Positions 33,225-60,259 are shown, numbered from the stretch's first letter. The stretch: 64,000 nt of DNA from Microgenomates group bacterium Gr01-1014_5 (GCA_007376395.1 VMGE01000003.1:26057-90056); one strand, 5' to 3'. The notes: a model not told the origin generated them from the letters alone. Numbers and translations: made by a program.

Positions 33225-33239
33225 TCAATTGATTTTATA

Positions 33240-34751: not shown

Positions 34752-34884
34752 GATATATATTCATTCTACTATATACATAATTTGGTAAAATAAGAGTAGG
34801 TCTATTAGGCTTGGAAGATATAATAACAACTAGAAATATTCATTTTAGAGACAATTATAACGAGGGTACACCTATAACTAAGTT

Positions 34885-35713: not shown

Positions 35714-35769
35714 GGTCTGATTATATCACGGAAGTATCCTACATAATAATCCCGTGCAGAAACTATTTA

Positions 35770-36156: not shown

Positions 36157-36204
36157 ACGAGAAACTGAACCATTTAGGATCTTAAAATTGGCTTTGTCTA
36201 GAAT

Positions 36205-36867: not shown

Positions 36868-36890
36868 TTATACTCTTAATTATCTTCGGT

Positions 36891-37238: not shown

Positions 37239-37329
37239 AGTTCTGATCTAAATATAGCTCAAAAAGATATAAAATGCTAGTTATTGTCTGTAGAGCTATT
37301 GACTACATTTAGCTACAGTTTTAGCTACT

Positions 37330-37542
37330 ATGTTAGCCACTCCTACAAGAAAACAGCTCGGTAAAAAGTTAAGAGAGTTAAGAAAGAAGGCGGGTTTATC
37401 ACAGGAAGAACTTGGATTCCGTGCAGGACTACACAGGACATACATTGGGGCTATTGAAAGAAGCGAACAAAATGTATCGGTTGATAATGTTCATAAGCTG
37501 GCTAAAGCACTTAAAATTCTTGTAAAAGAGCTGTTTGGATAG
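37330..37542 (+). CDS. XRE-family (Cro/C1-type) HTH transcriptional regulator
   Basis: LRELRKKAGLSQEELGFRAGLHRTYIGAIERSEQNVSVDNVHKLAKAL. Confidence 0.8.
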   Translation: MLATPTRKQLGKKLRELRKKAGLSQEELGFRAGLHRTYIGAIERSEQNVSVDNVHKLAKALKILVKELFG

Positions 37543-37807
37543 TATTTCCCCCACTGAGCCAAAATTAGGAGTGTTGACAAATACCCCAAATATGTTTTAT
37601 ACTACATCTATGCTAACAGTAGATCAGGTAGCCGAAAAACTAAATGTTCATAGAAATACAGTTATTAATCTTATAAAGCAAGGAAAAATTCGAGCTATTA
37701 GGATTGGCGATCAGTACAGGATACCAGAGGAGACGTATAGTCAGTTTATTACCGCTTCTGAAGTAAGGCCAGATAATGTGGTCGCAGGGAGCAAAGTTTT
37801 AGGTTAA
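37535..37807 (+). CDS. Excisionase/MerR-type HTH DNA-binding protein
   Basis: LTVDQVAEKLNVHRNTVINLIKQGKIRAIRIGDQYRIPEE is an Xis-family HTH. It overlaps the XRE gene. Confidence 0.65.
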   Translation: MDSISPTEPKLGVLTNTPNMFYTTSMLTVDQVAEKLNVHRNTVINLIKQGKIRAIRIGDQYRIPEETYSQFITASEVRPDNVVAGSKVLG

Positions 37808-37834
37808 TTAGGTTTATATTTAGGTATTTTTAGG

Positions 37835-39558: not shown

Positions 39559-39625
39559 TACTCAAACGGCTGATTGCTTTTTTTGATGGCCGTCTTGGAC
39601 AACCTGAGCAATCAGTTTGAGTACA
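39559..39625. promoter_or_regulatory. Imperfect inverted repeat GTACTCAAACGGCTGATTGCT ... AGCAATCAGTTTGAGTAC (about 28-nt spacer) upstream of the serine recombinase. It is a candidate attP-like site or operator.
   Basis: Seen directly in sequence; 18/21 matched arms. Coordinates are within ±2 nt. Confidence 0.4.
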
Positions 39626-41386: not shown

Positions 41387-41733
41387 GAGATTATGCATCT
41401 GTAATCTCTAATTACTCAGAGTGTCGGACTATATCTTCACCCCGATTAAATCGGGGGCTCGGCGTGTAGTCTCTACGGTGTCCCTCCGAAACTTTAGTGA
41501 AGGAGGGTTCCCTCGGTATTACCCTCTATAAGAGTAGGGTTTCACCGATATAGCCAAGTTATCAAGAAACATTACTGTTAAATGTGCCCAATTTGAGCCT
41601 CCTGTGCAACTCTACACTACCCCGCATGTCTCTTACCAACTGAATTATAACAGATGCAGGCTCGAATTAAAAGCCTCTTGACTACCAATAGAATAGCTGT
41701 TATGGTGATAGTTAAACCACATAACTTTATACA
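41387..41733 (+). other. Highly structured ~345-nt non-coding region with several perfect hairpins. Candidate ncRNA or attachment-site region.
   Basis: Hairpins CCCCGATT-taaa-ATCGGGG, CCCTCC-gaaactttagtga-GGAGGG and CTCT-ata-AGAG; no ORF; GC is higher than in surrounding intergenic DNA. Confidence 0.3.
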
Positions 41734-42423
41734 TTGATCAGGAAACCCCTAGAAAAACAAAAAGCTCAAGAGCTACGAAAGCAAGGCAAGAGTATCGGAG
41801 AAATAGCACAAGAACTTGGAATTTCAACCTCAACAGTTAGCTTGTGGGTAAGAAATATTACTTTAACAACTGAGCAGAAAAAACGGCTTGAAAATAAGGT
41901 GTTTACTACCCTACAGAAAGGTAGGATTATCGCCCAGGAGGTTCAAAAACAATTAAGAGACAATCTCAAAAGAGAAATCTCTGCCGAAGCCGTACTACAA
42001 CTCGGAAAACTCTCAAAAAGAGACCTTTTTATTGCCGGAATTATCCTATATTGGACAGAGGGTTTTAAAAAAGATAATCGGTTAGGATTTGCAAATTCCG
42101 ACCCACAAATGGTCAAGTTATTCTTAAAATGGCTTTATACCTTGGGAGTACCAAAAAATAGTATCCGTTTAAGAGTTGGGATAAATATTAGCCACAAAAA
42201 GAGAGTTAAGGTTATAGAAAAATATTGGTCTAAACAAACCAACATCCCCCTTTCTCAATTTCAGAAGCCCTTTTTTCAAAAATTTATATGGAAAAAAGAA
42301 TTTCCTGATCCAAACTTATACCATGGAGTTATAAGAGTGCGTGCCATAAACCAAGGCAGATTGTTCATAAAAATACTTAAATGGATAGCATTGGTAAGAA
42401 CTTCAAATAATACTTTGCTATAA
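41734..42423 (+). CDS. HTH plus LAGLIDADG-like homing endonuclease fusion (paralog B; TTG start)
   Basis: ELRKQGKSIGEIAQELGISTSTVSLWVR HTH; FIAGIILYWTEGFKK. Confidence 0.6.
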   Translation: MIRKPLEKQKAQELRKQGKSIGEIAQELGISTSTVSLWVRNITLTTEQKKRLENKVFTTLQKGRIIAQEVQKQLRDNLKREISAEAVLQLGKLSKRDLFIAGIILYWTEGFKKDNRLGFANSDPQMVKLFLKWLYTLGVPKNSIRLRVGINISHKKRVKVIEKYWSKQTNIPLSQFQKPFFQKFIWKKEFPDPNLYHGVIRVRAINQGRLFIKILKWIALVRTSNNTLL

Positions 42424-42429
42424 TAAAGT

Positions 42430-42780
42430 GTGGCTCTGGTTCTAATAGCTCTCTTCTGGTTTTGGCCAATACTTCTTTCCTTTGCCACAATTTTTATTTA
42501 CGGATTACTGACCCAAAAAATCGGGAACGAAAGGTTTGTATATTTGGTAATTATTAGCTTGGTTTTGGCACCAATTGCGCTATCTGCACAAGCCTTCTAT
42601 GTTTGCGGGTTGGATATTGACTATTACCATAATTGTAGCTTGAGCGAACGCTTAAACGAGGTTAGTAAATTTCTTCCTTCGATTATTAGAGGTTCAACTT
42701 TTTTATTAAGCGGTGTTTACTTTTCAATTTTTTACCTCGCAATACTTGCTAAACACTTAAAAAACAAGTACTTGCATTAA
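42430..42780 (+). CDS. Hypothetical membrane protein
   Basis: ORF track; 3 TM helices. Confidence 0.4.
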   Translation: MALVLIALFWFWPILLSFATIFIYGLLTQKIGNERFVYLVIISLVLAPIALSAQAFYVCGLDIDYYHNCSLSERLNEVSKFLPSIIRGSTFLLSGVYFSIFYLAILAKHLKNKYLH

Positions 42781-43130
42781 AAAAATAGTCTCATCCAGCG
42801 TTGGTATATTGGCTCTTCTTCAGCAAAATGCTCCTGGTCAAACTCCGGAGCAAGACGCCGCAAAACCTCATCTGCCGGCAAAACCACAACCACTTCCCCG
42901 GGTTTGGCTAAGCCTAGCTTCTCCCGAGCCTCTTTTTCCATAAATTCTTGGGATTCTACTTGTTCTTTAACTTCCAAAAGACGAGCCTGTTCTGCCTCTA
43001 ACTCGCGGACTCTAACTTCAGCCTCTTTAGTCGCGTCACCCCGCCCCAAGAGCTGAAATGTCGAACGCCCCATAGAAACTATCAAAAAGAGCGATAATGC
43101 CAAAACTATCCAATGTGTATATTTCTTCAT
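42777..43130 (-). CDS. ftsB: Septum formation initiator FtsB/DivIC-like
   Basis: N-terminal TM helix, a coiled coil and the conserved EKEAREKLGLAKPGEVVVVL C-terminal motif. Confidence 0.7.
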   Translation of the reverse strand: MKKYTHWIVLALSLFLIVSMGRSTFQLLGRGDATKEAEVRVRELEAEQARLLEVKEQVESQEFMEKEAREKLGLAKPGEVVVVLPADEVLRRLAPEFDQEHFAEEEPIYQRWMRLFF

Positions 43131-43227: not shown

Positions 43228-44094
43228 ATGGCTACAACTAAAACATTAACCGATTTAAAACTGGACTTTGTTCGTAATCTTGAAAATACAGGACGTGCCT
43301 CAGCTACCATTCTAGCTTACAGAAAAGACCTTGAGCAACTTATTGAGTATTTAGAAAAACAAGGGAAAAACACCATTGAGCCTATCAGACCTCTCGACAT
43401 CGAGGCTTTTCGTGATTCCTTAAGGAGCCAAAATTATACTGACAAATCAGTCTCCCGCAAGCTAAACGCGGTCAAAACTTTCTTTGGCTGGCTGGTAACC
43501 CAGAAAATTTTAGAAAATGACCCAGCAGCGCCCGTTGCCCACCCCCGCTACGAGAATCCACCCCCAAGAATTCTTACCCGCATGGAGTACAGGGCTTTGC
43601 GTGACGCCGCCCGCGGAGATTTGCGCATTAGCGCTATTATCGAGTCAATGCTGCAAACCGGAATCCGTATTGGCGAGGTTTCCAATCTAAGACTAGAGGA
43701 CGTCCAAGGAGATAAAATTTTAATCAAGGCGTATGAATCTCAACCAGAACGCGAGATTCCCTTAAACGAGCCGGCAAAACAAGCTTTACATCAATACTTA
43801 GCAATCCGCCCCAAGGCACAAACTACTCACGTCTTTGTGACTAAAACAGGCCGTCCGCTACTCGTCCGCAACATAAGGAGTGCTATTGACCGCTATTTTA
43901 AAGAAGCCGGCATAGAAGACGCCAAAGTAAACGACATGCGCAACACCTTTATCGCCCACCAACTAAAGTCGGGTGTCGATATTGTCACGGTCTCCAAAAT
44001 TGCCGGGCACAGAAGACTCTCAACCACAGAGCACTATCTTCAGTTTGTTGAAAGAAAAGAGTCCCGCCGCGGAGCAAAACTAGACGAGCTCTAA
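43228..44094 (+). CDS. Tyrosine recombinase (XerC/XerD-like)
   Basis: R...H-x-x-R...Y pattern: GIRIGEVSNLRL, ...HQLKSG..., and C-terminal IAGHRRLSTTEHYLQ. Confidence 0.85.
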   Translation: MATTKTLTDLKLDFVRNLENTGRASATILAYRKDLEQLIEYLEKQGKNTIEPIRPLDIEAFRDSLRSQNYTDKSVSRKLNAVKTFFGWLVTQKILENDPAAPVAHPRYENPPPRILTRMEYRALRDAARGDLRISAIIESMLQTGIRIGEVSNLRLEDVQGDKILIKAYESQPEREIPLNEPAKQALHQYLAIRPKAQTTHVFVTKTGRPLLVRNIRSAIDRYFKEAGIEDAKVNDMRNTFIAHQLKSGVDIVTVSKIAGHRRLSTTEHYLQFVERKESRRGAKLDEL

Positions 44095-45933: not shown

Positions 45934-47844
45934 TTATTCCGTTCTCTTTTGGCTTACTGCTCCGGGGATTTTTTCCCAATCGCGATTCTTCCTTACTTTT
46001 AAGTTCTTGTTCCAAATAGACTCAAATACAGATAAATCCACTTGTAAAGCTCGAGCTAAGCCCAAAAAACCAACAAGGTCTTTAGGAAAACAGTTATGGA
46101 CAACTGCATCTGCTAAGACGTATGTGTGATTTTTACTAACCTCAAAGTTATAAACTTTTCCTTCATAATCAACCTCAGTAATTTCTTTAATAGGTATAAA
46201 AAAGAAGTCTTTCTCGAAAAAAGAAGTCTTACGTAGAAGTTTAAGGTCTTTTTCTAGTTTGTCGTCGATAATCTGACTAAATTTCTGAATATCGGAATAA
46301 TTCCTAATCCTAATAAAGTAGGCTGTCTTATGATTTACTCCATCCCTACCTGTTCTCTCTTGTGCGATCCTGGTAGAAAAACCAATTTCCAAGCTTAGTA
46401 AAATCAATTTTAATTGATAAAATAAATCCTGAGAAATAGTCGCCATACTATAAACTCCGGTTGATTTGCTACCGTCACCTCTAAAATAACCTTTCATAAA
46501 CTCAGTTAAACCCTTTCTGTTTGATGATAAAATTTTTACACTTAGACGTTTTTTCGCACTCATTTTACCGCAATTTTCCTCAAGTAAGTTAGCTAGTTTC
46601 TGTGAACTACACCGTAGATTAAGTGCATTTCCTACCCCTCTTCTGTGTGTAACTAAGCTGAAATTCAGCTTCAATATTTTCTCAATATCCTCTACATAAG
46701 TAGATTCGTTTTTGTGGAACCCAAATGTTATTCTGTTTTTCACACCTATGTGTCCCTCTGCTACATAATATCCAAAGAGCCGCATAACACTATTATTAAA
46801 ATTTTTCGTACCATTTTTAACTTTAGGTAAAACTATAAAATCTCCTTTTTGTAATTCTCGAGCTGGTACCCACTCTAAATTAAGATTGCCGTTATAATTA
46901 GTAAGCTTTTGTCTTTTAATTCCATTATATTTTCTTCCGGTTTTTACAGCATATACAGGATGTTCACTTGTAAGGGTAAATCCCTGCAACCCCTGTCCTC
47001 TTATAAAAATAAGTTTCTCATTTACCTCTCTTTCGTGCCTTTCTAAAACTTTTTGACAACTTCCATCTATTGTTAGAACAGAATCGCCAAATTCTACTTC
47101 TCGAACGAATTTTATTCCTCCGTTTACATAGACTTTTGTTTCAGGATGTAAACATTTCCCGCCAAATCCCATATCCCCGTCCGGGCCGGGAACTTTCAAA
47201 TGCCCTCCAATTCTCGGGTCTGCCTGTACCATTTCGCGGACATCGTCATAATTTACTTTTAATTTATCTGCTAAACCATGTATTTCATTTGCCAAAATAA
47301 TTTTGGCGGACAATAGCGCGTTGGAAGCAAATTTTGCAAGTTCAACAGTCGTTGGATCACTTAAGAAATATTTCGCGTCCTGGGGGTAAATTGCCTCGTA
47401 TAAAGCCTTGATTCTTTCAGCGATACTTTTATCAAGAGCTCCTATCAAGGTTCTGTCTGGGTGTAAAAAGTCATTTTCTGGCTGTTTTTCAGTTAAAAAT
47501 TCGGGGTTGAAGGCAAAATTTACATTAGAATATTTTTCGCTGAAACTTTTAGTTGTTCCGGGGATAACTGTTGATTTGATAATTAATACTTTTTCCGTAT
47601 TAACCAAAAGTGGAGCAAAATTACTGACTGCCTCCTCTACTACAGAAATATCTGTTCCGGAATAATCAGAAAACATAGGTGTGGGGACACAGACAAATAG
47701 AAAATCTGAAGCCTCGACCAATTCTTCGACACTTAGCCCGCCTTCTTTATATGGGTCGTGCCACGCAACCTCGTGTGAGCTTTGAAAACCCTTACCTGTT
47801 GCTTGTCCTACAACTCCCCAACCAATAATACCAACCTTTGCCAT
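45934..47844 (-). CDS. Nucleotide-sugar (UDP-glucose/GDP-mannose) dehydrogenase-family protein interrupted by an intein. The C-terminal extein is unusually short (52 aa).
   Basis: N-terminal Rossmann GIIGWGVVG, and a catalytic-site GFGGK-[C...VVHN]-CFPKD split by the intein. Confidence 0.8.
   Translation of the reverse strand: MAKVGIIGWGVVGQATGKGFQSSHEVAWHDPYKEGGLSVEELVEASDFLFVCVPTPMFSDYSGTDISVVEEAVSNFAPLLVNTEKVLIIKSTVIPGTTKSFSEKYSNVNFAFNPEFLTEKQPENDFLHPDRTLIGALDKSIAERIKALYEAIYPQDAKYFLSDPTTVELAKFASNALLSAKIILANEIHGLADKLKVNYDDVREMVQADPRIGGHLKVPGPDGDMGFGGKCLHPETKVYVNGGIKFVREVEFGDSVLTIDGSCQKVLERHEREVNEKLIFIRGQGLQGFTLTSEHPVYAVKTGRKYNGIKRQKLTNYNGNLNLEWVPARELQKGDFIVLPKVKNGTKNFNNSVMRLFGYYVAEGHIGVKNRITFGFHKNESTYVEDIEKILKLNFSLVTHRRGVGNALNLRCSSQKLANLLEENCGKMSAKKRLSVKILSSNRKGLTEFMKGYFRGDGSKSTGVYSMATISQDLFYQLKLILLSLEIGFSTRIAQERTGRDGVNHKTAYFIRIRNYSDIQKFSQIIDDKLEKDLKLLRKTSFFEKDFFFIPIKEITEVDYEGKVYNFEVSKNHTYVLADAVVHNCFPKDLVGFLGLARALQVDLSVFESIWNKNLKVRKNRDWEKIPGAVSQKRTE
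46093..47154 (-). mobile_element. Intein (354 aa) with a LAGLIDADG homing-endonuclease domain, inserted at the catalytic Cys of the dehydrogenase
   Basis: Begins with Cys (CLHPE...) and ends ...VVHN followed by a +1 Cys. Contains LAGLIDADG-like LFGYYVAEGHIG. Confidence 0.75.
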
Positions 47845-48125: not shown

Positions 48126-48203
48126 GGTGGGCCCAGTTGGACTCGAACCAACAAAACCTTCTAGGTATAAGCTAGACGCTCTGGCCAATTGAGCTATGGG
48201 CCC
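48126..48203 (-). tRNA. tRNA with apparent anticodon UAU (Ile, AUA-decoding type) and an atypical 7-nt variable region
   Basis: Hand fold GGGCCCA-TA-GCTC-AATTGGCCA-GAGC-G-TCTAG-CTTATAC-CTAGA-AGGTTTT-GTTGG-TTCGAGT-CCAAC-TGGGCCC-A-CC. A TAAAAT box sits about 13 nt upstream. Confidence 0.7.
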
Positions 48204-48227: not shown

Positions 48228-48908
48228 TCAAGTCCGAAGTCTCCTGACATATTCGTCAGATACAACCTCTATGCTCATTAAAATCTTCTCGATCAGATCC
48301 CTGCCGTTTACTATCAAATTACAAGTGCCGTGACCGATACCCTTATAAGTTAAGCCTCGTAGTGTTGTTTCTTTTATATAAGGTTTTATAAATTTGCCCT
48401 CAGGAATCCTTAGCTCCTTACTCCAAAATGCAATTTCCATCTTTTGATCCATATCTTTATATAGATGCAACCTAATAGTTATTTTATCTTTTGGAACTTT
48501 AAGAATTTTAATTAGCCAGTAAAGAAAAAATTTTACTACTTTAGGATTAGTGTTACTCAAACTCGTTGCAAATGGCGTAGTCTTTGCTCCCTCACCCCAA
48601 TAAAGAAATAGTCCTGCAATTAACAGTTCTCGCTTCGTTAAGGGCAGTAATAATTTCTTTTGGTGGTCATATACAGCTTTCCGTCTAGTAGTAGTTTTTA
48701 TTCTCCATGTCTCTCTAAATCTCTCAATACGTTTTTCGCTATTTGCCCTCAGTTTATTTATTTGCTCTCTACTTAGAGGATATCCGCGAAGCCACAAACT
48801 AAGACTGCTTTTACTTACTTGAAGTTGTTCTTTTATATATGAATAGCTAAAACCTTGCTTCCTTAATTCTAAGGCTTGAAGTCTCTTCTCAGTCAGTGGA
48901 GCAACCAT
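48228..48908 (-). CDS. HTH plus LAGLIDADG-like homing endonuclease fusion (paralog C)
   Basis: ELRKQGFSYSYIKEQLQVSKSSLSLWLR HTH; LIAGLFLYWGEGAK. Confidence 0.6.
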   Translation of the reverse strand: MVAPLTEKRLQALELRKQGFSYSYIKEQLQVSKSSLSLWLRGYPLSREQINKLRANSEKRIERFRETWRIKTTTRRKAVYDHQKKLLLPLTKRELLIAGLFLYWGEGAKTTPFATSLSNTNPKVVKFFLYWLIKILKVPKDKITIRLHLYKDMDQKMEIAFWSKELRIPEGKFIKPYIKETTLRGLTYKGIGHGTCNLIVNGRDLIEKILMSIEVVSDEYVRRLRT

Positions 48909-49434: not shown

Positions 49435-49709
49435 TTTTCGTATTTTGCAGAATAATGTTCTTTAATTGCCAATTCTATAATCTCATCATCGCTCATTCCT
49501 CTAAATCTCTTTGGCTTCTTTACAGACCCTGCAAGACGTTTAACTAAAGCAACCGCAGACTCGACTTTTAAAATTCCATTGTCTTCATTGACTACAACTC
49601 TATCCCCCACTTTAAGCCCTGCTTTTCTGAAGACTTTTACAGGAATTGTAAGTTGTCTTTTACTGGTAATAGTAGCCATTGACATTGTAAGGAAATTATA
49701 TAAAAACAA
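49431..49709 (-). CDS. AbrB/MazE/SpoVT-type antitoxin
   Basis: SKRQLTIPVKVFRKAGLKVGDRVVV swapped-hairpin motif. Confidence 0.7.
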   Translation of the reverse strand: MFLYNFLTMSMATITSKRQLTIPVKVFRKAGLKVGDRVVVNEDNGILKVESAVALVKRLAGSVKKPKRFRGMSDDEIIELAIKEHYSAKYEK

Positions 49710-49763
49710 GGAAATATTGTCAAGGTAAGGAAAATTTTGAGTCTAATATATAATGAAAACTTT

Positions 49764-52700
49764 TTAAGAAAGTAAAGTTCCTGTTTGTTTGCTTAAGATT
49801 ACTGCGTTTAAGTCATGATATCCGCCAAACCAACTCATTAAACCCCCCAAAGTATCGCTGTATTCAGAAGTATTGTTGCTTGGCGGCAAATATACGCTTA
49901 CCGTACGCTTGTCGGAATTAAACCCTGCTTTTGCCGCTTCTTGGGGGAGAAGTGAAACCGTCTTTGAACTGTCTGCGCCGGTGGCGACAACTATTTCACT
50001 TCCTACAACCAACACAGCGCCAATTGCTTCTGCTTTTTCCAAAGCAAGGCGAATTATAGCACGGTAAATATCTGGCGTCTCGGAAGCGGTGTAGACCGGC
50101 TCAAGCAAGATTGCCGGTTGTTTTTGCCCATCATTTGTTTGAATGTGAGTCAATTTGGCCATTGCACGACCCAGCACCTCTCTTCTCTCGTTTTCCACAT
50201 TAAAAACGCGCTTATTGGCGTCCACCACATAAGCCGGCAAGCAATAGTTGAATGCTCCACCCCGCCAAGACTGACATGTTTCCCGAGGCTCAATTCCCGC
50301 TTTCAATAAAGCTACCGGGTCGTCCGAATCGTATGCCCGCAAGACAGCAACAGTCTCTAATTTTGCTTGGGTAGTAAACACTTTTTCTATTTGATCCAAA
50401 TCCCGCATGGGCTGTTCCAGACCGGACAGTACACCCATAGCGCTCTTTGTTTTTGCCGCGATTGATAAAATATCTTGAGGTTTAAGCGAATCAGGGCTTG
50501 CCGATTCAAGCTGAATAAACCCTTCAATTAAGCGCAGTTCGGCGTCAACAGACCGCTTTCTTACACCTAGTTCTCTTTTCTCATCCTCTTGGGAATTTGC
50601 TTTTATCTCTCTGATCAGGGTTTTTTGCATTTCTCCAAGCTGACGAGCCCTGTCCGGCGAAAAGTCTACTTTATATATATCCTGAACATGAGCCCGCGCT
50701 TCACCAACAATGCGTTTTATAGCGTCAACCGTGGCTTGGCGCGCCTCCGCTCCTTTTTGCGCCTGAACACTCAAGACTACCTCTGGTACCGGTTCGAGCC
50801 AAGCATTCCTCTTGTCTTCTGCTAAAATACTAAGCTGTTCTTTAGACGCCTCAAGGCCCTCTCTCCACGCCTTAAAATCTCCAAAGACAATATGCCTGCC
50901 TATTTCCCGCACCACCCCTTCTTCACTTGAACGGGATAACTTACTCATTTGAGATAGAAGACTGGGTATTATTTCAACAATATTGCTCTCGACTAAATAA
51001 GGAAGTTTCTCATTAACTAAAGCTTTCTCAGCTTCTCCCAACTCCATCTTTTCTGCAACAACGGCAACAACTTTTTCTTTAAGATCGGCAATTGTTTCCT
51101 GAAGCGTAGCTTTGGGGTCGTAAGAAAATTTACCCAATCCGTCTAACGTTTGTAACAGCCGGAAAACTTCCCTTACTCTGGCCGAATCTTCCCTAGCACC
51201 TGTGACAAAACCCAAAACAGACTCTGCAATTTCCCTACCGTTTTCTTTTCCGCTCAACATCAACAGACCCTCAGACATGGCGTTTCTGGCCATTATGCCC
51301 ACTTTCAAGTCCCGTGTATTATAAAGTTCGCGCAACTTAGCAATTAAGGCTTCGTCTAATTTAATTCCTTCGCGAGCAACAATTTCAGGAAACCAAGCGT
51401 AATTGCCATTTTCAGGGTGAACAAGAGCTTTAAAAATGTCAGGTGTGTTAATTCTCCAATCCGCAACACCGCTGGCTGCAACTACCGGCGCAACGCTCTC
51501 GATATTTTGTATTAATAAGTCTTCTACTTTATTAGTAGTGTCTGCCCAACCACCAGCAAAGAAAAATGCGCGCAATTCAGTATCAGTTAAATCTACCCCT
51601 TGTTGTTTACCAATAGTTTTGGCAATTTGGGTCATTTTTTCCAGCGCGAGATATTTTGGAGCTTGCGAGAGAAGACCTGACATACCATAACCATCAAATT
51701 GCTGATAAACACTGTCGCGATTCAGCAACCACTCGGTTATAATCCGTTTATCAAGAGGAGAAGAAGCTTCTATGACTTTATGTAAATCTTCTTGTGTAAG
51801 CGGGTTTTGAGCTATTTTATCTATTGTATAGGCAACTGAATTACTTGTATGCCCACCCGGAAAACGCCGAAGATATTCTATCAAGTGCGGTATTGCGCGA
51901 GGGTCGCGCATAAGATAAAAACAATGACTTGCACTCGTTCCGTCCCAACTTTCTGCTCTCCCATTAAAGAGATCTTGTAAGAACTTTATGTGAACAACAT
52001 CATATAAAGCTCTTGTTTGTTCAGGAGTTGGATTAATCGCTTCCCATTCTTCTTTCTGAAAATCTTTCATCACCCTATATATTGCTTCACCTTTAGCATG
52101 AAACGAATCGGGTAAAAGTTGTGTAAAGTAAGTAAACTGGTTCGACTTATTTTCATAATCTGTCTGTAGTTTTGTAATTTGCTCGAATGTTGCTTGATAA
52201 GCTTTTTTGGTGTCATCGTCTGAAACTGCCGTTGCTAATATTTTGATTGATTCTGCCATTTTCAAACCTTCTTTGTAAGGAAACTTACCTACAATATCCT
52301 TGCCAAACAAATCGCGACCGTATCTTCCTAAAGCTTCAAGACAAATTTCCTGAAGTTCCACTTTTACTTGCTCCATGCGTTGATATAATTCAGAATTTTC
52401 TTCCCGGCGTTTTGGCGAAAACAAAAAGTGCTGTGTCATTGCAACTGCTCTAAATGCCTGAAGGGTGCTTTTGTATGCTTCTTCCGGATTTTCCACTCCA
52501 TCCCTATCAAATTTATGCCGCCTTGACCATATTTCTTCATTTTGTTTGTCTAAAAATAATTGCAGTTTCTCGGTATTTACAGGATCTCCCTGAACCGGCA
52601 TAAACTCAGCACTTGCTACCCCGAAAGGAGACAGCGCAAGGTCAACATCTTCTCGAACAATATTTCCCGGTTTAAGTACAAATCTTAATAAAGGGTTTTT

Positions 52701-52817
52701 AACTCTTGTTTCAACCGCCGCTTTATAATTAGCAACCGCGTTTTTAAGAAGTTTTAAGTTTGGAGATTCAGGCTTTTCAAGCTCTCGATTTTCAATTGGG
52801 GCAGTAGAAACTTCCAT
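49764..52817 (-). CDS. Giant hypothetical protein (1017 aa) with no recognisable domain. Last gene of the ATPase operon.
   Basis: ORF track; 3-nt gap to the upstream ATPase gene; no TM helices or signal peptide. Confidence 0.6.
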   Translation of the reverse strand: MEVSTAPIENRELEKPESPNLKLLKNAVANYKAAVETRVKNPLLRFVLKPGNIVREDVDLALSPFGVASAEFMPVQGDPVNTEKLQLFLDKQNEEIWSRRHKFDRDGVENPEEAYKSTLQAFRAVAMTQHFLFSPKRREENSELYQRMEQVKVELQEICLEALGRYGRDLFGKDIVGKFPYKEGLKMAESIKILATAVSDDDTKKAYQATFEQITKLQTDYENKSNQFTYFTQLLPDSFHAKGEAIYRVMKDFQKEEWEAINPTPEQTRALYDVVHIKFLQDLFNGRAESWDGTSASHCFYLMRDPRAIPHLIEYLRRFPGGHTSNSVAYTIDKIAQNPLTQEDLHKVIEASSPLDKRIITEWLLNRDSVYQQFDGYGMSGLLSQAPKYLALEKMTQIAKTIGKQQGVDLTDTELRAFFFAGGWADTTNKVEDLLIQNIESVAPVVAASGVADWRINTPDIFKALVHPENGNYAWFPEIVAREGIKLDEALIAKLRELYNTRDLKVGIMARNAMSEGLLMLSGKENGREIAESVLGFVTGAREDSARVREVFRLLQTLDGLGKFSYDPKATLQETIADLKEKVVAVVAEKMELGEAEKALVNEKLPYLVESNIVEIIPSLLSQMSKLSRSSEEGVVREIGRHIVFGDFKAWREGLEASKEQLSILAEDKRNAWLEPVPEVVLSVQAQKGAEARQATVDAIKRIVGEARAHVQDIYKVDFSPDRARQLGEMQKTLIREIKANSQEDEKRELGVRKRSVDAELRLIEGFIQLESASPDSLKPQDILSIAAKTKSAMGVLSGLEQPMRDLDQIEKVFTTQAKLETVAVLRAYDSDDPVALLKAGIEPRETCQSWRGGAFNYCLPAYVVDANKRVFNVENERREVLGRAMAKLTHIQTNDGQKQPAILLEPVYTASETPDIYRAIIRLALEKAEAIGAVLVVGSEIVVATGADSSKTVSLLPQEAAKAGFNSDKRTVSVYLPPSNNTSEYSDTLGGLMSWFGGYHDLNAVILSKQTGTLLS

Positions 52818-52820
52818 TTT

Positions 52821-55166
52821 TTATAGTTTTGCCCGTCTTCCAATTTCTGCCTCAACCAAAGCCTTATCTCGGCCGTACTTGAGGCGGGACATTTCTTTGA
52901 TAATTTGGGCTACCCGGTCATTTTTACTTGCATTCACCTGAACCATGTCGCGCGTTAGATCGACTGAGAATGGAGGAACAGGCTCGTTATTCACAATTGT
53001 CTTCGTGTAGACATTGAAGCGCTCGATATTTAAGAGATCGTCTTCGTCAAAAACCGGCTGGAATTCGCGAGCCAAATAATTAGCGTCTGTCACACCCACA
53101 CGGAAAGCCATTAATGTTCCGACATTGCCGAAGACTGCGTTTTTGACCTCCTCGTCCATCTGTCCTATAAATTGGTTGGCAACACAAAGTGAAAGTCTAA
53201 ATTTGCGCGCCTCAGAAAGAATTTGGGCAAAGTCAGGCGTCGCAAAGTTTTGGAACTCGTCAACATACATGTAAAAATCTGTACGCTGATTCTCGGGAAC
53301 GTCAGCGCGCGACAAGGCAGCCATTAAAATTCTAGGAATAAGAATTAGTCCCAAGAAACTTGAGTTTTCCTCCCCCAAGCGCCCTTTGGAAAGATTAATC
53401 AAAAGAATTTTTCTGTTGTCCATTACTTCGCGCAGATTGAGCGTGGAGGTGCTTTGACCAATGATATTTCTAATTAATTTATTGGTAACAAAGCGTCCGA
53501 ATTTAGAAACGATATAGTCCAAAACCTCGGATTTGTGGAACTCTGCAGTTTGGGCAATCTGGTCTGTCCAATAGCGGCGGATCATCGGGTCTTTTAGCTT
53601 GGGAATAAGCTCTTGAACAAAGGCCGGATCGGTTAAAATGCGGACGACCTCGACAAAGGTTGCCCCCGGCACTTCGTATGCGGTCAACATCGCGTTGCGG
53701 ACTGAATGCTCAAAACGCGGACCGATAATGCCAGTTTTATACGGATCGTAAAGTTTATACATCAAGTTGATGATGGCGGACGACACAAAGTGCATCTGCT
53801 GTTCACTTACTGCCTCCAGAAGGTTTAGACCTATTGGCCGCTCTTCATCAGCCGGGTCAAAGTAGATAACATCTTCTGCGCGTTCTGGCGGAATCATTTT
53901 CAAGATGTCTTCTATGGCGTCGCCGTGTGGATCCATAAAGCAAAGTCCGCGCCCTCCTCTAATATCTTGCATAATTAAATCCTTCAAAAGCTCTGTCTTG
54001 CCAGTTCCTGTTTTACCGATAATGTACATATGACGGCGCCTGTCGTCGTCCTCGATATAAACCGGGCGCTCTACTCCCCGATACGCACTCTGGCCGATAT
54101 AAAGACCGCTTGTTGCAATCTGCGCCGGAGCCGGAGCGCGCTTGGCATTAAGCCAATAAATGTGCGGGGTTGTAATTTGTTTATTAGGGAGATGGAAAAC
54201 CGTGGCCAACTCCTCTGAATTTAAGACCATCTTTTGGTTGCCAAAAAAGTGCACCATCGGGTGGTAGCGGTAAAGGAAATCAGAAACAAAAGCACCTTTG
54301 TTGCGGATTTTTCTGCCTTTAAATCCATTTAATTCTCCTGAAAACTGTTCAAAAGCAGATTTTATATTAGCTAAATGTGTTTTTGCGGCCGACTCGTCGC
54401 GGGCAACGACAACCGTCCTAATTGTCACTTCAAACCCGGGCTTGGAAAGCTTGTTGTTAATCGCTTCCATTGTTTTTGCGTCGACTTTATAAGAAGCTTT
54501 TTCCGGGTCTGCTTCTGACTTTTTAACCCGGGAGAGATACCCCTTACCTTCTTTTTTCCAATCGCTGTCGGCTGGCGAAAGTAGAATCTGGATGCCAACT
54601 GCTTCCCCCTCCCCCATTTTGGCCAAAGACGAAGTTAAGGAAGAAAGCGGATCAGTGGCTAAATCTTTATAGATTTTGATCGGGTTGAAGCTGGGACTTC
54701 TTAATTGCACAGTCGAGTAGGCAACCTTGCCGTTTTCAGTAAACAGGTTATACTCCGGAACCTCAATGATTTCCGCGTCGGTGTATGCCCCGTAAATTTG
54801 TTTTTCAACTAAATCGTGCAGACGGCGCGGGCACCAAACATAAAAACGGATATCTTCGGATCTGGCGACAATCTCAAAAGAGATTGTTTCTTGGGTATCA
54901 AACCTTTGCTTCCAACCGCCCTTTTTTATTGAATAAAGAGCCGCGAACATTTGTTCTGCCGCGTCAATTTTTACTTCACTGTCGCGCGGAACAGCAATTT
55001 GCAAAAGAATTGAGTCTAAAGACCTTGATTCTCTTTTTCTGTGTTTGAAGATTGTCAAAACCCAGTAAGCTAAGATCGACAAGACTAGGCTTAAAAGGCC
55101 AAAGACGATCAAAACCATGAAGGCGCTAATTACTAATTCTGTCAGTCTGGTGGTAACATCATCCAT
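52821..55166 (-). CDS. Membrane-anchored FtsK/HerA/TraD/VirD4-like P-loop ATPase (coupling-protein-like)
   Basis: N-terminal TM helices. Walker A IIGKTGTGKTE, Walker B FYMYVDEFQNFAT and a downstream ARKFRLSLCVANQ. Architecture is like T4SS coupling proteins. Confidence 0.7.
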   Translation of the reverse strand: MDDVTTRLTELVISAFMVLIVFGLLSLVLSILAYWVLTIFKHRKRESRSLDSILLQIAVPRDSEVKIDAAEQMFAALYSIKKGGWKQRFDTQETISFEIVARSEDIRFYVWCPRRLHDLVEKQIYGAYTDAEIIEVPEYNLFTENGKVAYSTVQLRSPSFNPIKIYKDLATDPLSSLTSSLAKMGEGEAVGIQILLSPADSDWKKEGKGYLSRVKKSEADPEKASYKVDAKTMEAINNKLSKPGFEVTIRTVVVARDESAAKTHLANIKSAFEQFSGELNGFKGRKIRNKGAFVSDFLYRYHPMVHFFGNQKMVLNSEELATVFHLPNKQITTPHIYWLNAKRAPAPAQIATSGLYIGQSAYRGVERPVYIEDDDRRRHMYIIGKTGTGKTELLKDLIMQDIRGGRGLCFMDPHGDAIEDILKMIPPERAEDVIYFDPADEERPIGLNLLEAVSEQQMHFVSSAIINLMYKLYDPYKTGIIGPRFEHSVRNAMLTAYEVPGATFVEVVRILTDPAFVQELIPKLKDPMIRRYWTDQIAQTAEFHKSEVLDYIVSKFGRFVTNKLIRNIIGQSTSTLNLREVMDNRKILLINLSKGRLGEENSSFLGLILIPRILMAALSRADVPENQRTDFYMYVDEFQNFATPDFAQILSEARKFRLSLCVANQFIGQMDEEVKNAVFGNVGTLMAFRVGVTDANYLAREFQPVFDEDDLLNIERFNVYTKTIVNNEPVPPFSVDLTRDMVQVNASKNDRVAQIIKEMSRLKYGRDKALVEAEIGRRAKL

Positions 55167-55167
55167 C

Positions 55168-55224
55168 TTTTGAGAATTTCTAATATCTAATTACTAATTT
55201 CTAAATAAATCCCAATTAGGTCAA
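55168..55224. repeat. AATTAG-rich intergenic element (copy 2), immediately upstream of the membrane ATPase gene
   Basis: See the 18731-18833 entry. Confidence 0.55.
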
Positions 55225-55584
55225 TTAGGAATTATTTTTGTAGATAACTTTTACTCCTGCCAACGCCGCTTTTTTTGCAATTCTTACACACCACGCCGCT
55301 AGCCAGTAAATTGCGTCGACTATCTTGTGGTGCAAACCATGTTTAATTTCATCTTCAGCCAAAGGCAAGGTGATGGTTACCTGCTGACTACCCGAAGGGG
55401 TTAAAACGACTTGCCCAGAGTCATCGGTTACCGGTTCACTTCCGGGATCGCGCTCTATTTTGTCCAAATACCCCTCAATCGCCTGCTCTTGGTCTTCAAT
55501 CCGCGCCGCCTCGCCAGGTTCTCTTAGTTTTTCTTCAATTAACGGATGTCCTTCTTTTTCCGGAGCAGAAACCATACAAATCAA
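55225..55584 (-). CDS. Small acidic hypothetical protein
   Basis: ORF track; first gene of the operon. Confidence 0.4.
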   Translation of the reverse strand: MICMVSAPEKEGHPLIEEKLREPGEAARIEDQEQAIEGYLDKIERDPGSEPVTDDSGQVVLTPSGSQQVTITLPLAEDEIKHGLHHKIVDAIYWLAAWCVRIAKKAALAGVKVIYKNNS

Positions 55585-56294: not shown

Positions 56295-59200
56295 CTAGCA
56301 TTCTGAGTGTCCACAGCCGTAGCATTTTGAACAACCTTCTTCGTGAACAAATGCGGCTGCGCCGCACATCGGACAAAGGTCGGCTGCGGTTTTTTTAAAG
56401 TCAGCAGCTGGGGCCGGCGTGGGGTCAGGGTTGTGCGCCGCCATGACAGCCCCAGCTTGCAAATTAGGTGTCGATTCAGAGAAGCCATTTTTCTCTGAAA
56501 CCGAGTCAGACTCGGTGGTGTGTTTCCCGTTCAGCCCGAAATGGCGCGAAAGCGCGAGGGCGATGGCGTCTGGAACCGAGCGCACCCGATTAGGTCCAAA
56601 CCCAATTGAGTTGCGTCCTCCAATTCCCGATAACTGGTGAATAATCTCGTGTACTTTACCTAAAGGCTTACTGTTGCCGCGAATCCTAAAAGTCATCGAG
56701 AGTAATCTGCCAAACGCTTCTGCCATGGCGTTAACGTCAGAACCAGCTTTGCCGATATTGATAAAAACTTCGACCGGGTTGCCGGTAGGGTCTGTATTGA
56801 TCGTTATAAACGCACTGCCCAGAGGAGTCGCCATGCGGTAGGTTACGCCTTCTAACTTTTCCGGTCTTTGCACTAAAAGCTCATGTGATTCAACCGCCGC
56901 AGCCGGCGTAAGAGTAAGTTGCTGAGTTAAACCTCCCTCTTCTGCCGTAGCTTGAGCTTCGGTTTTTACAGGTTCCTCTTTGGAAAGCACACCGGGACGA
57001 CTGCCGTCTCTAAAGAAAGTTATCCCTTTGCATCCCAAGTCGTAAGCCATCATGTAAAGTTTTTTGACGTCGTCTACTGTATATTCATTTGGCGCATTCA
57101 CGGTTTTAGAGATTGAGGCGTCAACATAACGCTGAACAGCCGCCTGTACTTTAACGTGGTCTTCAGGAATTAGGTCACTCGATGAAACAAAATAATTTGG
57201 AATCTCTTCTCCTGGGTGCGCTTCTTTCCACGCTTGGAATAACGGGTGATAAATGTTGTGCTCCCCAATTCTGTCGCGTCGGACAAATGAAAACTCATAT
57301 ACCGGCTCAATACCCGAAGTTACCTCTGACATCAGAGAAGTTGAACCAGTTGGCGCCTGCATTAAAAGAACCGAGTTTCTGATCCCCTGTTTTTTAATCA
57401 TTGCCTGGATTCTTTCTGGTAATTGGCGGATAAATAATCCTTGAGCATATTTTTCGCGGTCAAATTTAGGGAAAGATCCTTTTTCGCGGCCAATTTCTGA
57501 AGACTCCTCAAAGGCCGCGTCACGGATTAATTTATAGATTTTCTCGACTACTTCAATTGATTCGTCAGACCCGTAACGAATCCCCATTTTAATTAATGCG
57601 TCTCCCAGCCCCATGGTTCCAAGACCAATTCTTCTTTCCCCGTCCAATTGCGTCTTGCGGATTCCGTCGAAGATATAGATATCTCCATCAATAACATTGT
57701 CTAAAAACCGCGTCGCAACTTTAGCGTGTTCTTCCAAGGATTTGTAATCCATAACACCTGTTTCATTGACAAAAACAGCCAAGTTTAAAGAGCCTAAGTT
57801 GCAAACTCCGTACGGCGGCAACGGTTCCTCACCGCAATTTGAAATAATAAGACCGTTAGCTGCAAACTGGTGAATTTCTGCTACGGTAATATCAAACACC
57901 TCTTCTACCCTATCTTTCTCTAAGCTCTCAAATGTTGCTTCAAAAGTATTTTTATAAGGCCCTTTTTTGTAAAGCGCCAAACTTGTACGTAATTTTTCCT
58001 GCTTTTCTTCTTGCAAAAAGCCAATAAATGCGGCAAAGCTGGCAACTCCCTCTCCAGAAATTACTAAATCGTGATACGCTTGGGTTGGATAAAGTTTTTT
58101 ACCTCCTTTACCGTCGGGCATCATCCGGTCCTGAGCCAGCCTGCGGTTTTTATAAATTCGGCTAACAATTCCAAAGTTTATTAATAATCTCTGGACATTT
58201 ACCAAAAGCTCTTCGCTCACCGATGTTAGTCTTACGCTTACTCCTTTTTCCGGGGTTCCTGCAACGTGTCCGTCACTTGAGAAAATACCCTGCAAAAATC
58301 CTCTCTGCAGGGCCTCTGACCCGCCAAAAATAGCGTCCGGAACGATAAGTTTCGCGCCGTGAGCAAAGCCCAAAGACTGAGCAAGTTTTAATAATCTTTC
58401 TGATTTAACAACTGCCTTGTTTTCTTTTTGAACATAGATTGGAGAAACTGTATATGCTCTGCCATTAACTCCCGTGTCCCCTACCATTGCTTGTACTGCC
58501 GCAGCAAACTGAGGTGCAAGTTCTGTTTTTTCTTGCTGATAAAAGAAAAGTTCCGCTCTTTCTTTTTTTACCGAACCGTCACCTACAAGCCAGCCCCAAA
58601 CTCTTCCTTCTTCAACCGTACCCACACTTCCAAAAGCGCCATATTTATTAAGTAAAATTTTATCACCTGTTTTAAGTTTTCCTGCTTCTACTTTTCCGGC
58701 AGGAGTATAAACTTTATGGTCCTGGGTTAGTCGAAGGCGATAACCTTCTTTAGTTTGCAATTTATATACTTGTTTAACTCCGGTTAGAAAAGGTTGCGAA
58801 GAAAGATACTCTTTGCCGCCGACCACTGCTTTGAAAGGCTTGCCTGCCTCATAAAGCTTACGCATCGGGAAAATTCCTTGGCTTGTGGTAATCAGCGTGT
58901 CTCCTGTAACACAAGGATTAGTGCAATTCAGATAATTGAAGTAATAGTTGGAAGAAAGCTTGTTTGTCCTTTCCATAAAATGAAGTCCAGGCTCTGCAGA
59001 TTGCCAAGCCGCCTCACAAATAAGATCCCAGAGCTCGCGAGCTTTAATAGTTTTGTAAATTTTTACCTTACCGCCTGATTTAATCCAGTTATCAAGAATG
59101 CCGTCCCATGCCGTGTCATAAAGCGGGTCATCTAAATCCGGAAAGAGTAATGGCCAATCTTCGTCTTTTTTAACTGCCTCCATTAAACGGTCAGAAACAC

Positions 59201-60020
59201 AAATGGATAAATTTGCCCCCTTAATTCGGGCAAGATCGCGCTTGACTGTTATAAATTCTTCAATATCCGGATGCCAATCCCAAAGCATGAGCATAAGGGC
59301 GCCGCGGCGCGTTCCGCCTTGCTGAATAACGTCATGGGTTGCCACAGAATACATTTCCGCCCAATTCATAGGTCCTGAAGAAAATCCGTTAACCTTTTTA
59401 ACCCGGGAACCACCTGGGCGTAGAGAAGAAAGGTTAACCCCTACCCCACCGCCGCGTGCCATGATATCGATCATCTCAGTTAGGTTTTCCATAATTCCGT
59501 GACGAGAGTCGCCGGGTGAAGGTAGAACATAGCAGTTGTAATAGGTCACCTGATAACCAGTACCGGCTCCAGACAAAATTCTTCCACCGGGAACAAATTT
59601 AAATTCTTCCATCGCCTGATAAAACTTATCTTCCCATTCTTTTTGTTTTTCATTTGTCTTTTCAACACGGGCAATAGCGCGTGCAACTCTGCGCCACATT
59701 TGTTCCGGGTGTTGTTCAAGAGGGTTGCCTAGTTCGTCTTTTAACGAATAGCGGTCAAGAAAAACTTTTTGACTAACACCTTCCAGCACAGTTCCGTTTG
59801 TTAAAGGTTCGGGGTCAACTCTAATCAAGGTTGGGTTAAGAAGATTTGGGGTTTCTGTCTTAAATTTAACTCCTGCTTGTCTGGCCAGTTCGAGACGGGC
59901 GTGTCCATTACCATTTACAACATGGCCATTGCTGTGACCATTAGAATGCCCGTTAGACTGACGGCCTACGCGGCTTTTATTCTTTTTCTTAAGCTCTGTT
60001 GTGATTGCAGTTTGTGCCAT
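56295..60020 (-). CDS. nrdJ: Class II (adenosylcobalamin-dependent) ribonucleotide reductase NrdJ containing an intein. Likely start is MAQTAI at 60020.
   Basis: Active site ...LNCTNP-[intein]-CGEEP..., a C-terminal zinc ribbon CPMCG...CSKCYGCGHSEC, and an N-terminal His/Asn/Gly low-complexity tract. Confidence 0.9.
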   Translation of the reverse strand: MAQTAITTELKKKNKSRVGRQSNGHSNGHSNGHVVNGNGHARLELARQAGVKFKTETPNLLNPTLIRVDPEPLTNGTVLEGVSQKVFLDRYSLKDELGNPLEQHPEQMWRRVARAIARVEKTNEKQKEWEDKFYQAMEEFKFVPGGRILSGAGTGYQVTYYNCYVLPSPGDSRHGIMENLTEMIDIMARGGGVGVNLSSLRPGGSRVKKVNGFSSGPMNWAEMYSVATHDVIQQGGTRRGALMLMLWDWHPDIEEFITVKRDLARIKGANLSICVSDRLMEAVKKDEDWPLLFPDLDDPLYDTAWDGILDNWIKSGGKVKIYKTIKARELWDLICEAAWQSAEPGLHFMERTNKLSSNYYFNYLNCTNPCVTGDTLITTSQGIFPMRKLYEAGKPFKAVVGGKEYLSSQPFLTGVKQVYKLQTKEGYRLRLTQDHKVYTPAGKVEAGKLKTGDKILLNKYGAFGSVGTVEEGRVWGWLVGDGSVKKERAELFFYQQEKTELAPQFAAAVQAMVGDTGVNGRAYTVSPIYVQKENKAVVKSERLLKLAQSLGFAHGAKLIVPDAIFGGSEALQRGFLQGIFSSDGHVAGTPEKGVSVRLTSVSEELLVNVQRLLINFGIVSRIYKNRRLAQDRMMPDGKGGKKLYPTQAYHDLVISGEGVASFAAFIGFLQEEKQEKLRTSLALYKKGPYKNTFEATFESLEKDRVEEVFDITVAEIHQFAANGLIISNCGEEPLPPYGVCNLGSLNLAVFVNETGVMDYKSLEEHAKVATRFLDNVIDGDIYIFDGIRKTQLDGERRIGLGTMGLGDALIKMGIRYGSDESIEVVEKIYKLIRDAAFEESSEIGREKGSFPKFDREKYAQGLFIRQLPERIQAMIKKQGIRNSVLLMQAPTGSTSLMSEVTSGIEPVYEFSFVRRDRIGEHNIYHPLFQAWKEAHPGEEIPNYFVSSSDLIPEDHVKVQAAVQRYVDASISKTVNAPNEYTVDDVKKLYMMAYDLGCKGITFFRDGSRPGVLSKEEPVKTEAQATAEEGGLTQQLTLTPAAAVESHELLVQRPEKLEGVTYRMATPLGSAFITINTDPTGNPVEVFINIGKAGSDVNAMAEAFGRLLSMTFRIRGNSKPLGKVHEIIHQLSGIGGRNSIGFGPNRVRSVPDAIALALSRHFGLNGKHTTESDSVSEKNGFSESTPNLQAGAVMAAHNPDPTPAPAADFKKTAADLCPMCGAAAFVHEEGCSKCYGCGHSEC
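57837..58913 (-). mobile_element. Intein (359 aa) with a double LAGLIDADG homing-endonuclease domain at the NrdJ catalytic Cys
   Basis: Starts CVTGDTLITT and ends GLIISN followed by +1 CGEEP. Contains WGWLVGDGSV and FLQGIFSSDGHV. Confidence 0.8.
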
Positions 60021-60259
60021 ACAAAAACTCGAGGATCGAGAAATCTCTTCGTCATATTCTAATAACACATGATATGTAGTCAACTGGTAACTTCTGTATC
60101 AAATAGCTTCATTTATACGGCTAGGCTGAGTAGAAACAGCTTTAAAAAACTTTAGAAAAAATGGCCGCTAAACCGTGTTTTTTCTTCACCTTAAAAATTA
60201 GGGGTTAAAAAAGAAGCAAGAAAATACCCAAACATTAACTTACTGAAGTATTTTTTGAC

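Follow-up and report, generated by a model that had tools for sequence, protein, structure and literature searches.

Coupling-type ATPases and the Microgenomates locus

Type IV coupling proteins (T4CPs; VirD4, TraD, TrwB, DotL) carry an N-terminal membrane anchor followed by a P-loop motor domain of the FtsK-HerA superfamily. In Patescibacteria, which make up a large share of bacterial diversity, a survey of 2,918 genomes counted 5,713 VirD4-type T4CP homologues, of which just 148 were close to virB4 (Quinonero-Coronel et al. 2025, PMC12102498). The T4CP homologue of strain ML1 is non-essential, and the authors considered that exaptation 'cannot be ruled out' (PMC12102498). [quoted passage not shown] Southlakia the essential T4SS cluster comes without any recognisable coupling protein or relaxase (Wang et al., PMC10633639). 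Here an ATPase of this class is described together with its two operon neighbours in a 64,000-nucleotide (nt) stretch of DNA, hereafter the window (GCA_007376395.1, VMGE01000003.1:26057-90056), from Microgenomates group bacterium Gr01-1014_5. The source genome belongs to the Candidate Phyla Radiation (CPR)/Patescibacteria (Microgenomates) and is close to Ca. Blackburnbacteria; the 1017-aa protein encoded in the window shows 100% identity with a hypothetical protein of Gr01-1014_5.

The ORF (open reading frame) listing of the window confirms three minus-strand ORFs at 55225-55584, 52821-55166 and 49764-52817, separated by gaps of 58 nt and 3 nt. They encode a small protein of 119 or 116 amino acids (aa), depending on the start codon, the 781-aa ATPase and a 1017-aa protein. 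A preliminary description of this DNA, made by a model from the sequence alone, had noted the three closely spaced genes at these coordinates and taken them for a candidate undescribed system. The gene layout was recovered as described. The three genes do not, however, make up one conserved system; they are best read as a core pair plus a clade-specific insertion. The locus is read here, with a probability of about two in three, as a composite in which a Microgenomates-wide two-gene module (the small gene and the ATPase gene) is followed by a 1017-aa gene that was inserted in one narrow clade. The case is also a caution: the tight operon-like spacing gave a core pair with a clade-specific insertion behind it the look of a 'system'.

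The ATPase fits a class that is already known, the orphan T4CP homologues of Patescibacteria, present in Pfam as DUF8128 + TrwB_AAD_bind. As in most Patescibacteria, the gene is chromosomal, stands away from virB4 and has no accompanying relaxase. New, as far as the literature was searched, are the obligate small partner, the fixed position between the cobalamin adenosyltransferase gene CobA and Xer/DivIC, and the full-length phage relatives. The same holds for the GNAT-fold assignment in the 1017-aa protein and for the previously unannotated domain family which it defines and which CPR bacteria and DPANN archaea have in common.

The ATPase and its small upstream partner

The ATPase (52821-55166, minus strand) consists of one transmembrane (TM) segment, DUF8128 and a VirD4/TraD-like P-loop domain. 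A Kyte-Doolittle scan places the N-terminal hydrophobic segment at residues 9-40 (55047-55142, minus strand), followed by KHRKRESR. Several N-terminal TM helices had been proposed. The membrane anchor stands, but the single stretch of ~32 hydrophobic residues probably forms one helix and not several. By the positive-inside rule this segment is the predicted anchor, with the rest of the ATPase predicted to be cytoplasmic. T4CPs, in contrast, typically have two TM helices.

The next ~330 aa, previously listed as unknown sequence, turn out to be Pfam DUF8128 (PF26449; about residues 45-340, 54147-55034, minus strand). The assignment comes from precomputed matches on homologues that are 97% identical to the window ATPase, together with the alignment to phage sequences. 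DUF8128 is the lineage-typical N-terminal domain and is common to the Bacillus-phage homologues. Profile searches found no relatives of it in the PDB, even with the phage sequences added, and a literature search on DUF8128 turned up nothing.

The P-loop motor domain spans about residues 365-735 (52962-54074, minus strand), as delimited by Pfam, NCBIfam and PDB matches and by motif alignment. Walker A (GKTGTGKT) begins at residue 384 (53994-54017, minus strand). Walker B (YVDEFQ) lies on the same strand within 53244-53270, which encodes MYVDEFQNF at residue 633, and FRLSLCVANQ follows at residue 656. All three motifs had been correctly reported; they are invariant across 23 homologues, and the R654...N664-Q665 block is likewise invariant. 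The ~245 residues from Walker A to Walker B leave room for an all-alpha domain of the T4CP type.

The best matches put the ATPase on the T4CP branch of the superfamily, and no library gives it a firm place in a curated family. In Pfam, PF10412 (TrwB_AAD_bind) scores 27.3 bits against a gathering cut-off of 20.5, covering residues 373-467 only, and TraG-D_C reaches 21.9 bits against a cut-off of 22. In NCBIfam, SXT_TraD matches at 2e-15, with further matches to the CD1115 VirD4-like family, TrbC and TraD; TIGR03743 reaches 56 bits where the cut-off is 366, and NF045973 reaches 42.9 where it is 250. Profile searches of the PDB recovered DotL (4e-6) and TrwB (6e-4). These results support the identification of the 781-aa protein as a membrane-anchored P-loop ATPase of the FtsK-HerA superfamily that is closest to T4SS coupling proteins, in agreement with the coupling-protein-like architecture first suggested for it. 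Apart from the single hydrophobic segment, it differs from T4CPs in the 300-aa DUF8128 that precedes the motor, in its small soluble upstream partner, in scores far below family cut-offs, and in a fixed housekeeping position by xer and divIC.

The ATPase has its conserved partner in the small upstream protein and not in the large downstream one. The mechanical ORF opens with a TTG at 55584 (119 aa), but the most likely start is the ATG at 55575, which gives an acidic protein of 116 aa (55225-55575, minus strand), because its N terminus, MVSAPEKE, fits the family consensus MxxxPEKE. The alignment shows a conserved N-terminal PEKE, a DD.GQ motif, an LPLT motif and a C-terminal amphipathic helix that is Trp-rich and basic (consensus S.RWLAEWC.R.IK). 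No TM segment was found in the small protein by hydropathy scan or in the alignment. The locus sample consisted of 80 species-level Microgenomates loci and six loci reached from individual proteins. A homologue of the small protein is encoded directly 5' of the ATPase gene in ~55 of the 80 species loci (tblastn), and 82 of all 86 loci have an ORF of median 122 aa that ends a median of ~8 nt from the ATPase start. The small gene has a ratio of nonsynonymous to synonymous substitution rates (dN/dS) of 0.11 against three close relatives. Because of the constant adjacency and the overlapping or near-overlapping reading frames, its product would be expected to serve as an adaptor or regulator of the ATPase.

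Four tandem AATTAG-type heptads (55180-55206, minus strand) lie in the gap that separates the small gene from that of the ATPase, just upstream of the start of the latter, and may represent an operator or promoter element. A search of the whole window for tandem (AATTAGN)n with at most 1 mismatch returned 9 matches against 0.96 expected, so the AATTAG-rich element does recur, as had been noticed. Other tandem heptads are found at 609-628, 18740-18752, 30730-30742, 55126-55138 and 55223-55235.

The small gene and the ATPase gene behave as a core chromosomal pair, and not as a defence island, a remnant of an integrative and conjugative element (ICE) or a prophage. A word-index search returned more than 7800 relatives of the ATPase. 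The best 120 are 69-97% identical, come from Woese-, Blackburn- and other Microgenomates, carry PF26449 + PF10412, and in most cases bear the name 'type IV secretion system DNA-binding domain-containing protein'. In a scan of GTDB species genomes the ATPase was detected in at least 556 species loci. Its dN/dS against the same three close relatives is 0.002-0.03, and its GC content is in line with that of its neighbours. The gene order is conserved as well: class II ribonucleotide reductase (RNR), sometimes preceded by NrdR, is followed by the PduO-type cobalamin adenosyltransferase (CobA), the small gene, the ATPase, a variable slot of 0-7 kb, a convergent xer and DivIC. In the 80 loci the variable slot holds toxin-antitoxin (TA) pairs, a short UDP-glucose dehydrogenase, an MFS transporter or an ATP-grasp protein, or xer itself comes next. 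In the window the Xer-type tyrosine recombinase (Pfam Phage_int_SAM_1 + Phage_integrase) occupies 43228-44094 on the plus strand, convergent to the ATPase, and forms the far border of the slot. The DivIC/FtsB-type septum protein, a further part of the conserved backbone, follows at 42777-43130 (minus strand).

These data bear on the proposals that the locus is a defence-type pair of an ATPase and an effector acting against phages, or a decayed ICE or relic conjugation module. Some observations point that way. The PADLOC model mad8 matches the ATPase domain at 4e-14, with weak matches to HerA and DndH; TA pairs, homing-endonuclease-like genes and the variable slot lie nearby; and relatives of the ATPase domain are found on IMG/VR contigs and in Bacillus phages. 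However, the window contains no other MADS, Dnd, VirB4 or relaxase gene, the other two proteins of the locus have no PADLOC match, and the ATPase keeps the same chromosomal position, from RNR/CobA to Xer/DivIC, in hundreds of species. Its low dN/dS is the opposite of defence-island behaviour, and its GC content does not set it apart. A relic conjugation module is therefore unlikely, since no VirB4 or relaxase gene is nearby and the housekeeping synteny is fixed; a defence pair is unlikely because the ATPase is a core gene under strong constraint. On the grounds of synteny, selection and missing partner genes, the mad8-based defence reading and the relic-ICE reading were rejected, and together they are regarded as highly improbable.

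Relatives of the ATPase in phages extend beyond the motor domain. PHROG 5156, a family of unknown function that includes 'VirD4 component-like' phage proteins, matches the ATPase at E 3.3e-94 over residues 224-777. In tblastn searches the phage homologues cover 73-89% of the ATPase including DUF8128, at ~21% identity, with the alignment starting from residue 84. They are carried by the SPO1-like Bacillus phages SP8, CampHawk and Goe19, by phage G (gp156), by JL, Shanette and CP-51, and by the deep-sea thermophilic phage D6E. The SP8 homologue (MW001214.1 99766-102486, L102) has 906 aa and no TM segment, and a 73-aa hydrophobic protein is encoded directly upstream of it. The small gene directly upstream of the motor gene is thus a likeness to the window locus. 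The phage proteins differ in that they have no fused TM segment, the hydrophobic segments in SP8 being located on the small upstream protein, and in that they are carried by phages, while the CPR gene belongs to the chromosomal core. In D6E the homologue (NC_019544.1 24473-26731, L103) lies between a partition protein and an integrase. A scan of IMG/VR with the ATPase recovered motor-domain relatives only (30-45% identity). A literature search for the role of the SPO1 VirD4-like protein turned up nothing.

The neighbourhood of the ATPase raises the further question of whether the pair works in chromosome segregation. The small protein and the ATPase could be an FtsK-like chromosome motor at the septum, acting with Xer and DivIC in dimer resolution or DNA clearance. 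Like FtsK/SpoIIIE, the ATPase belongs to the FtsK-HerA superfamily, is membrane anchored and has an Xer-type recombinase and DivIC in its neighbourhood. The convergent xer lies between 7 nt and 7 kb past the ATPase stop in ~55 of 80 loci, with DivIC next, and is within 450 nt in ~16. The ATPase also behaves as a core housekeeping gene, and the position of the D6E homologue beside a partition protein and an integrase fits such a role. However, the match to the FtsK_SpoIIIE model (PF01580; E 0.019, 14.8 bits) stays below the cut-off of 24, and T4CP models score better. The N-terminus is different, with one TM segment rather than four, and the Pfam scan gave no match to the Ftsk_gamma (winged-helix) domain. 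No conserved dif-like site was found beside xer, as a k-mer search of 42 loci returned promoter-like AT-rich words only. An FtsK has been reported for Saccharibacterium TM7x, and the conserved order may be plain synteny. A septal chromosome motor is therefore considered improbable.

Homology with TrwB, VirD4 and DotL makes it most likely that the ATPase assembles as a hexameric ring on the cytoplasmic side of the membrane. Hydrolysing ATP, it would pass a polymer, either protein or DNA, on to a membrane channel. It would then be an 'orphan' coupling-type ATPase, encoded away from a chromosomal, relaxase-less T4SS. It would work either with the Patescibacteria T4SS, which is favoured, or in an exapted role, such as one connected with Xer/DivIC; both suggestions are speculative. 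The DUF8128 ATPase and its small partner are well defined and can be tested as candidates for either the coupling function that is missing or a core function gained by exaptation, because the pair is among the most constrained in Microgenomates, occupies a fixed locus by xer/divIC and has full-length relatives in Bacillus phages.

The 1017-aa protein: a probable clade-specific insertion with a GNAT-fold domain

The third gene (49764-52817, minus strand) encodes a 1017-aa cytoplasmic protein made up of a helical part of ~800 aa and a C-terminal GNAT-fold domain, and it is a clade-specific addition to the operon. A promoter and terminator scan found no strong internal promoter or terminator. With the 3-nt gap and the shared strand, this makes it very probable that the 1017-aa gene is co-transcribed with the ATPase gene here. 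A perfect sigma-70-type promoter, TTGACA-17-TATAAT (49695-49723, minus strand), precedes the adjoining AbrB/PIN pair and marks the downstream limit of the ATPase operon. Since this pair has its own promoter, the 1017-aa gene is probably the last in the transcription unit. The pair had been noted as an AbrB-PIN neighbour, and the Pfam scan identifies it as AbrB/MazE-PIN.

Only in the recovered loci L003-6, L087-91 and L096 is the ATPase followed by a homologue of the 1017-aa gene (63-92% identical). In these close relatives (92, 89 and 63% identity) it always follows the ATPase, with a gap of 2-3 nt. It is found in none of the 80 species-level Microgenomates loci that contain the ATPase. An exhaustive profile search recovered 356 representative clusters of the family at E<=1e-3, whereas a word-index search with an 18-sequence profile gave the same four proteins only. 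Eight distant members could be placed on contigs (L092, L093, L095, L097-L101), and none of them is near a DUF8128 ATPase. Their neighbours are TPR + LysM proteins, RNase HII + LeuRS, superoxide dismutase, YchF/GAPDH/DnaJ, pentose-phosphate enzymes, pyrimidine-synthesis genes, L10/L12 with a Fic protein (a Fic gene neighbours the homologue in L100), and peptide deformylase. Named members of the family come from Ca. Uhrbacteria, Nanoarchaeia and Micrarchaeia. The preliminary description proposed that the ATPase and the 1017-aa protein belong to one system, and named their failure to co-occur elsewhere as the observation that would speak against it. That is what was observed outside a very narrow clade, with 0 of 80 loci and 0 of 8 distant family members showing the pair.

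Three observations bear on the origin of the gene in this clade. In a Blackburnbacteria relative (L003), the 3' end of the ATPase gene is present as a direct repeat of 112 nt (88% identical) on either side of a 1011-aa gene. The two copies (5068-5179 and 8209-8320) end at the same TAA, and neither the window nor L006 has the second one. The repeat resembles what a Campbell-type or cassette insertion would leave behind. In comparisons with L006 and L003, the synonymous divergence (dS) of the 1017-aa gene is 0.25-0.26, about half that of the adjacent ATPase gene (0.48-0.71). In L096 the tail of the ATPase is 99% identical but the large protein only 63%. The repeat, the lower dS and the contrast in L096 point to a secondary acquisition of the 1017-aa gene in this clade, and it would have entered the slot between the ATPase and the convergent xer. 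The gene is functional all the same, with a dN/dS of 0.17-0.22. Most likely, it is co-transcribed with the ATPase gene in this clade and is no obligate partner of it, and the family normally stands alone.

The three genes could still act together as a trio within the clade. In that case the GNAT-tailed protein would be a client of the ATPase. It might be an effector passed to the Patescibacteria T4SS and delivered into the host cell, or else an acyltransferase whose target for modification or regulation is the ATPase or the substrate of the latter. The same strand, the 3-nt gap and the lack of a strong internal promoter or terminator are in line with this, as is the adjacency in every recovered genome with a close homologue, down to 63% identity. 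The 1017-aa protein also evolves much faster than the ATPase, as the L096 comparison illustrates. However, the co-occurrence is absent outside the narrow clade, the eight distant members sit among unrelated genes such as those of the pentose-phosphate and pyrimidine pathways, ribosomal proteins or deformylase, and the family is present in DPANN archaea. The L003 scar and the unequal dS of the two genes also speak against a trio, and the dN/dS of the 1017-aa gene indicates purifying rather than diversifying selection overall. A functional trio is therefore judged unlikely, and the reading as a core pair with a later insertion is preferred.

Searches of Pfam, NCBIfam, PADLOC and PHROG gave no match to the 1017-aa protein. 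It had been called domain-less and devoid of TM helices. The missing profile matches and the lack of a TM segment were upheld, but the protein is not without a recognisable fold, as a HEAT-like match and a GNAT fold were detected. A full-length AF2 (AlphaFold2) model from four sequences predicts the N-terminal ~800 residues to be all-helical, with low confidence (pLDDT 47). A HEAT-like repeat segment at residues 305-381 (DPRAIPHLIEYLRRF...; 51675-51905, minus strand) weakly matched designed alphaRep proteins in a profile comparison with the PDB (E 1.5e-4).

For the C-terminal domain (about residues 825-1017, 49767-50345, minus strand), a model built from 28 diverse sequences is confident, with a pLDDT of 89.3 and a pTM of 0.81, and shows a GNAT fold (residues 827-1010), and Foldseek searches against the PDB and against BFVD agree on this fold. 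The module has ~200 aa and always forms the C-terminal part of its proteins, whose lengths range from 250 to 2000 aa. The family signature reads ETDDP..LL..G.EP.ETCQSW..G.YN.CL.AYV.D.NK ... R ... EP.Y ... KA ... EYSD.LGG. Invariant or near-invariant residues are G841, P844, C848, Q849, W851, N857, C859, D866 and R884, followed by E906, Y909, K928, A929 and Y986-S987-D988. On the fold, an invariant Glu-Pro-x-Tyr directly follows strand beta4, one of the late strands carries a conserved Tyr-Ser-Asp, and the alpha1-alpha2 region contains two conserved cysteines. The family extends to CPR and DPANN carriers such as P0184 (2037 aa), P0231 (Micrarchaeia, 1806 aa) and P0274 (Nanoarchaeia, 787 aa). 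In P0184 a second, canonical GNAT domain (Acetyltransf_1) is located after the new C-terminal domain. The IMG/VR scan gave no match to this GNAT-tailed family.

Within the GNAT superfamily (Eis-like 2hv2, M. abscessus Eis1, aminoglycoside and polyamine acetyltransferases, Naa/RimI) the window domain is 8-15% identical to described members. It differs from them in having no sequence-profile match and no conserved Q/RxxGxG/A loop, in its own two-cysteine signature, and in being always C-terminal on helical proteins. A fold and a signature motif can now be given to this previously unannotated domain family. The C-terminal domain is probably an active acyl-transfer enzyme, with E906, Y909, Y986 and the conserved cysteine pair C848/C859 as candidate catalytic residues. 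The 1017-aa product would then be a cytoplasmic scaffold of helical repeats with a divergent GNAT-fold domain at its C-terminal end, and acyl transfer would be its most likely activity.

Several points weigh against this overall picture. At the sequence level, membership of the ATPase in the T4CPs is weak, as the NCBIfam scores are far below their cut-offs and only the Walker A region aligns with DotL/TrwB. The large ORFs of the window and the flanking regions of the homologues yielded no VirB4, relaxase or other T4SS family. Conserved gene order in a slowly rearranging lineage is no proof of a functional link. For the insertion, the adjacency of the two genes survives divergence to 63% identity, so a clade-specific functional link is possible. 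For the C-terminal domain, no GNAT sequence profile matched the 1017-aa protein, seven of its relatives or the 28 domain sequences (Pfam, E<=1), and a profile search of the PDB found no sequence relatives. The Q/RxxGxG/A pyrophosphate loop between beta4 and alpha3 is absent: the segment is variable, has no conserved glycine and reads TASETPD in the window. Because of the missing loop and the lack of a GNAT profile match, the use of acetyl-CoA is no more than a possibility; the domain might instead lack catalytic activity or draw on a different donor.

A broader interpretation is rather unlikely. It would make the small protein and the ATPase a CPR-wide core machine outside conjugation and secretion, either a stand-in for or partner of the apparatus for chromosome-dimer resolution and division, in view of its fixed place by xer and divIC, or a motor that carries macromolecules of the host through the membrane of the epibiont, with an ancestry shared with the PHROG 5156 ATPase of large Bacillus phages. 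Separately, the cysteine-containing GNAT-fold domain would be a new type of acyltransferase tied to the lifestyle of ultra-small symbionts.

Other features of the window

Two further genes of the window are unusually long. The UDP-glucose dehydrogenase (45934-47844) has 636 aa versus 284-288 aa in relatives, and the class II RNR (56295-60083) has 1262 aa versus 809 aa in L002. The RNR homologue of L001 has Intein_splicing and LAGLIDADG_3 matches. Both window genes probably contain inteins, because they are far longer than their intein-free relatives and because of the matches in L001.

A group I intron (41405-41605, minus strand; Rfam 68 bits, E 3e-15) lies between a serine recombinase gene and a helix-turn-helix gene, and ARAGORN found no tRNA around it. 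Two paralogous proteins of ~227 aa are encoded at 48228-48908 (minus strand) and 41734-42423 (plus strand), with 34% identity (E 5e-27). They combine an N-terminal HTH_23 domain with an LYWGEG/LYWTEG motif that recalls LAGLIDADG endonucleases. One of the two adjoins tRNA-Ile and the other adjoins the group I intron. The tRNA-Ile (48126-48203, minus strand) has the anticodon TAT (UAU) and would decode AUA without a lysidine-modified CAU tRNA.

A low-GC block at 30001-38000 (0.35-0.37 versus 0.40-0.46 elsewhere) is probably an integrated element. It neighbours a tRNA-Met and a large serine recombinase with Resolvase and Recombinase domains (39617-41386). The window also encodes an ATP-dependent DNA ligase of the archaeal/eukaryal type (15241-17022, minus strand) and a Fic-domain protein (18834-19946, minus strand).

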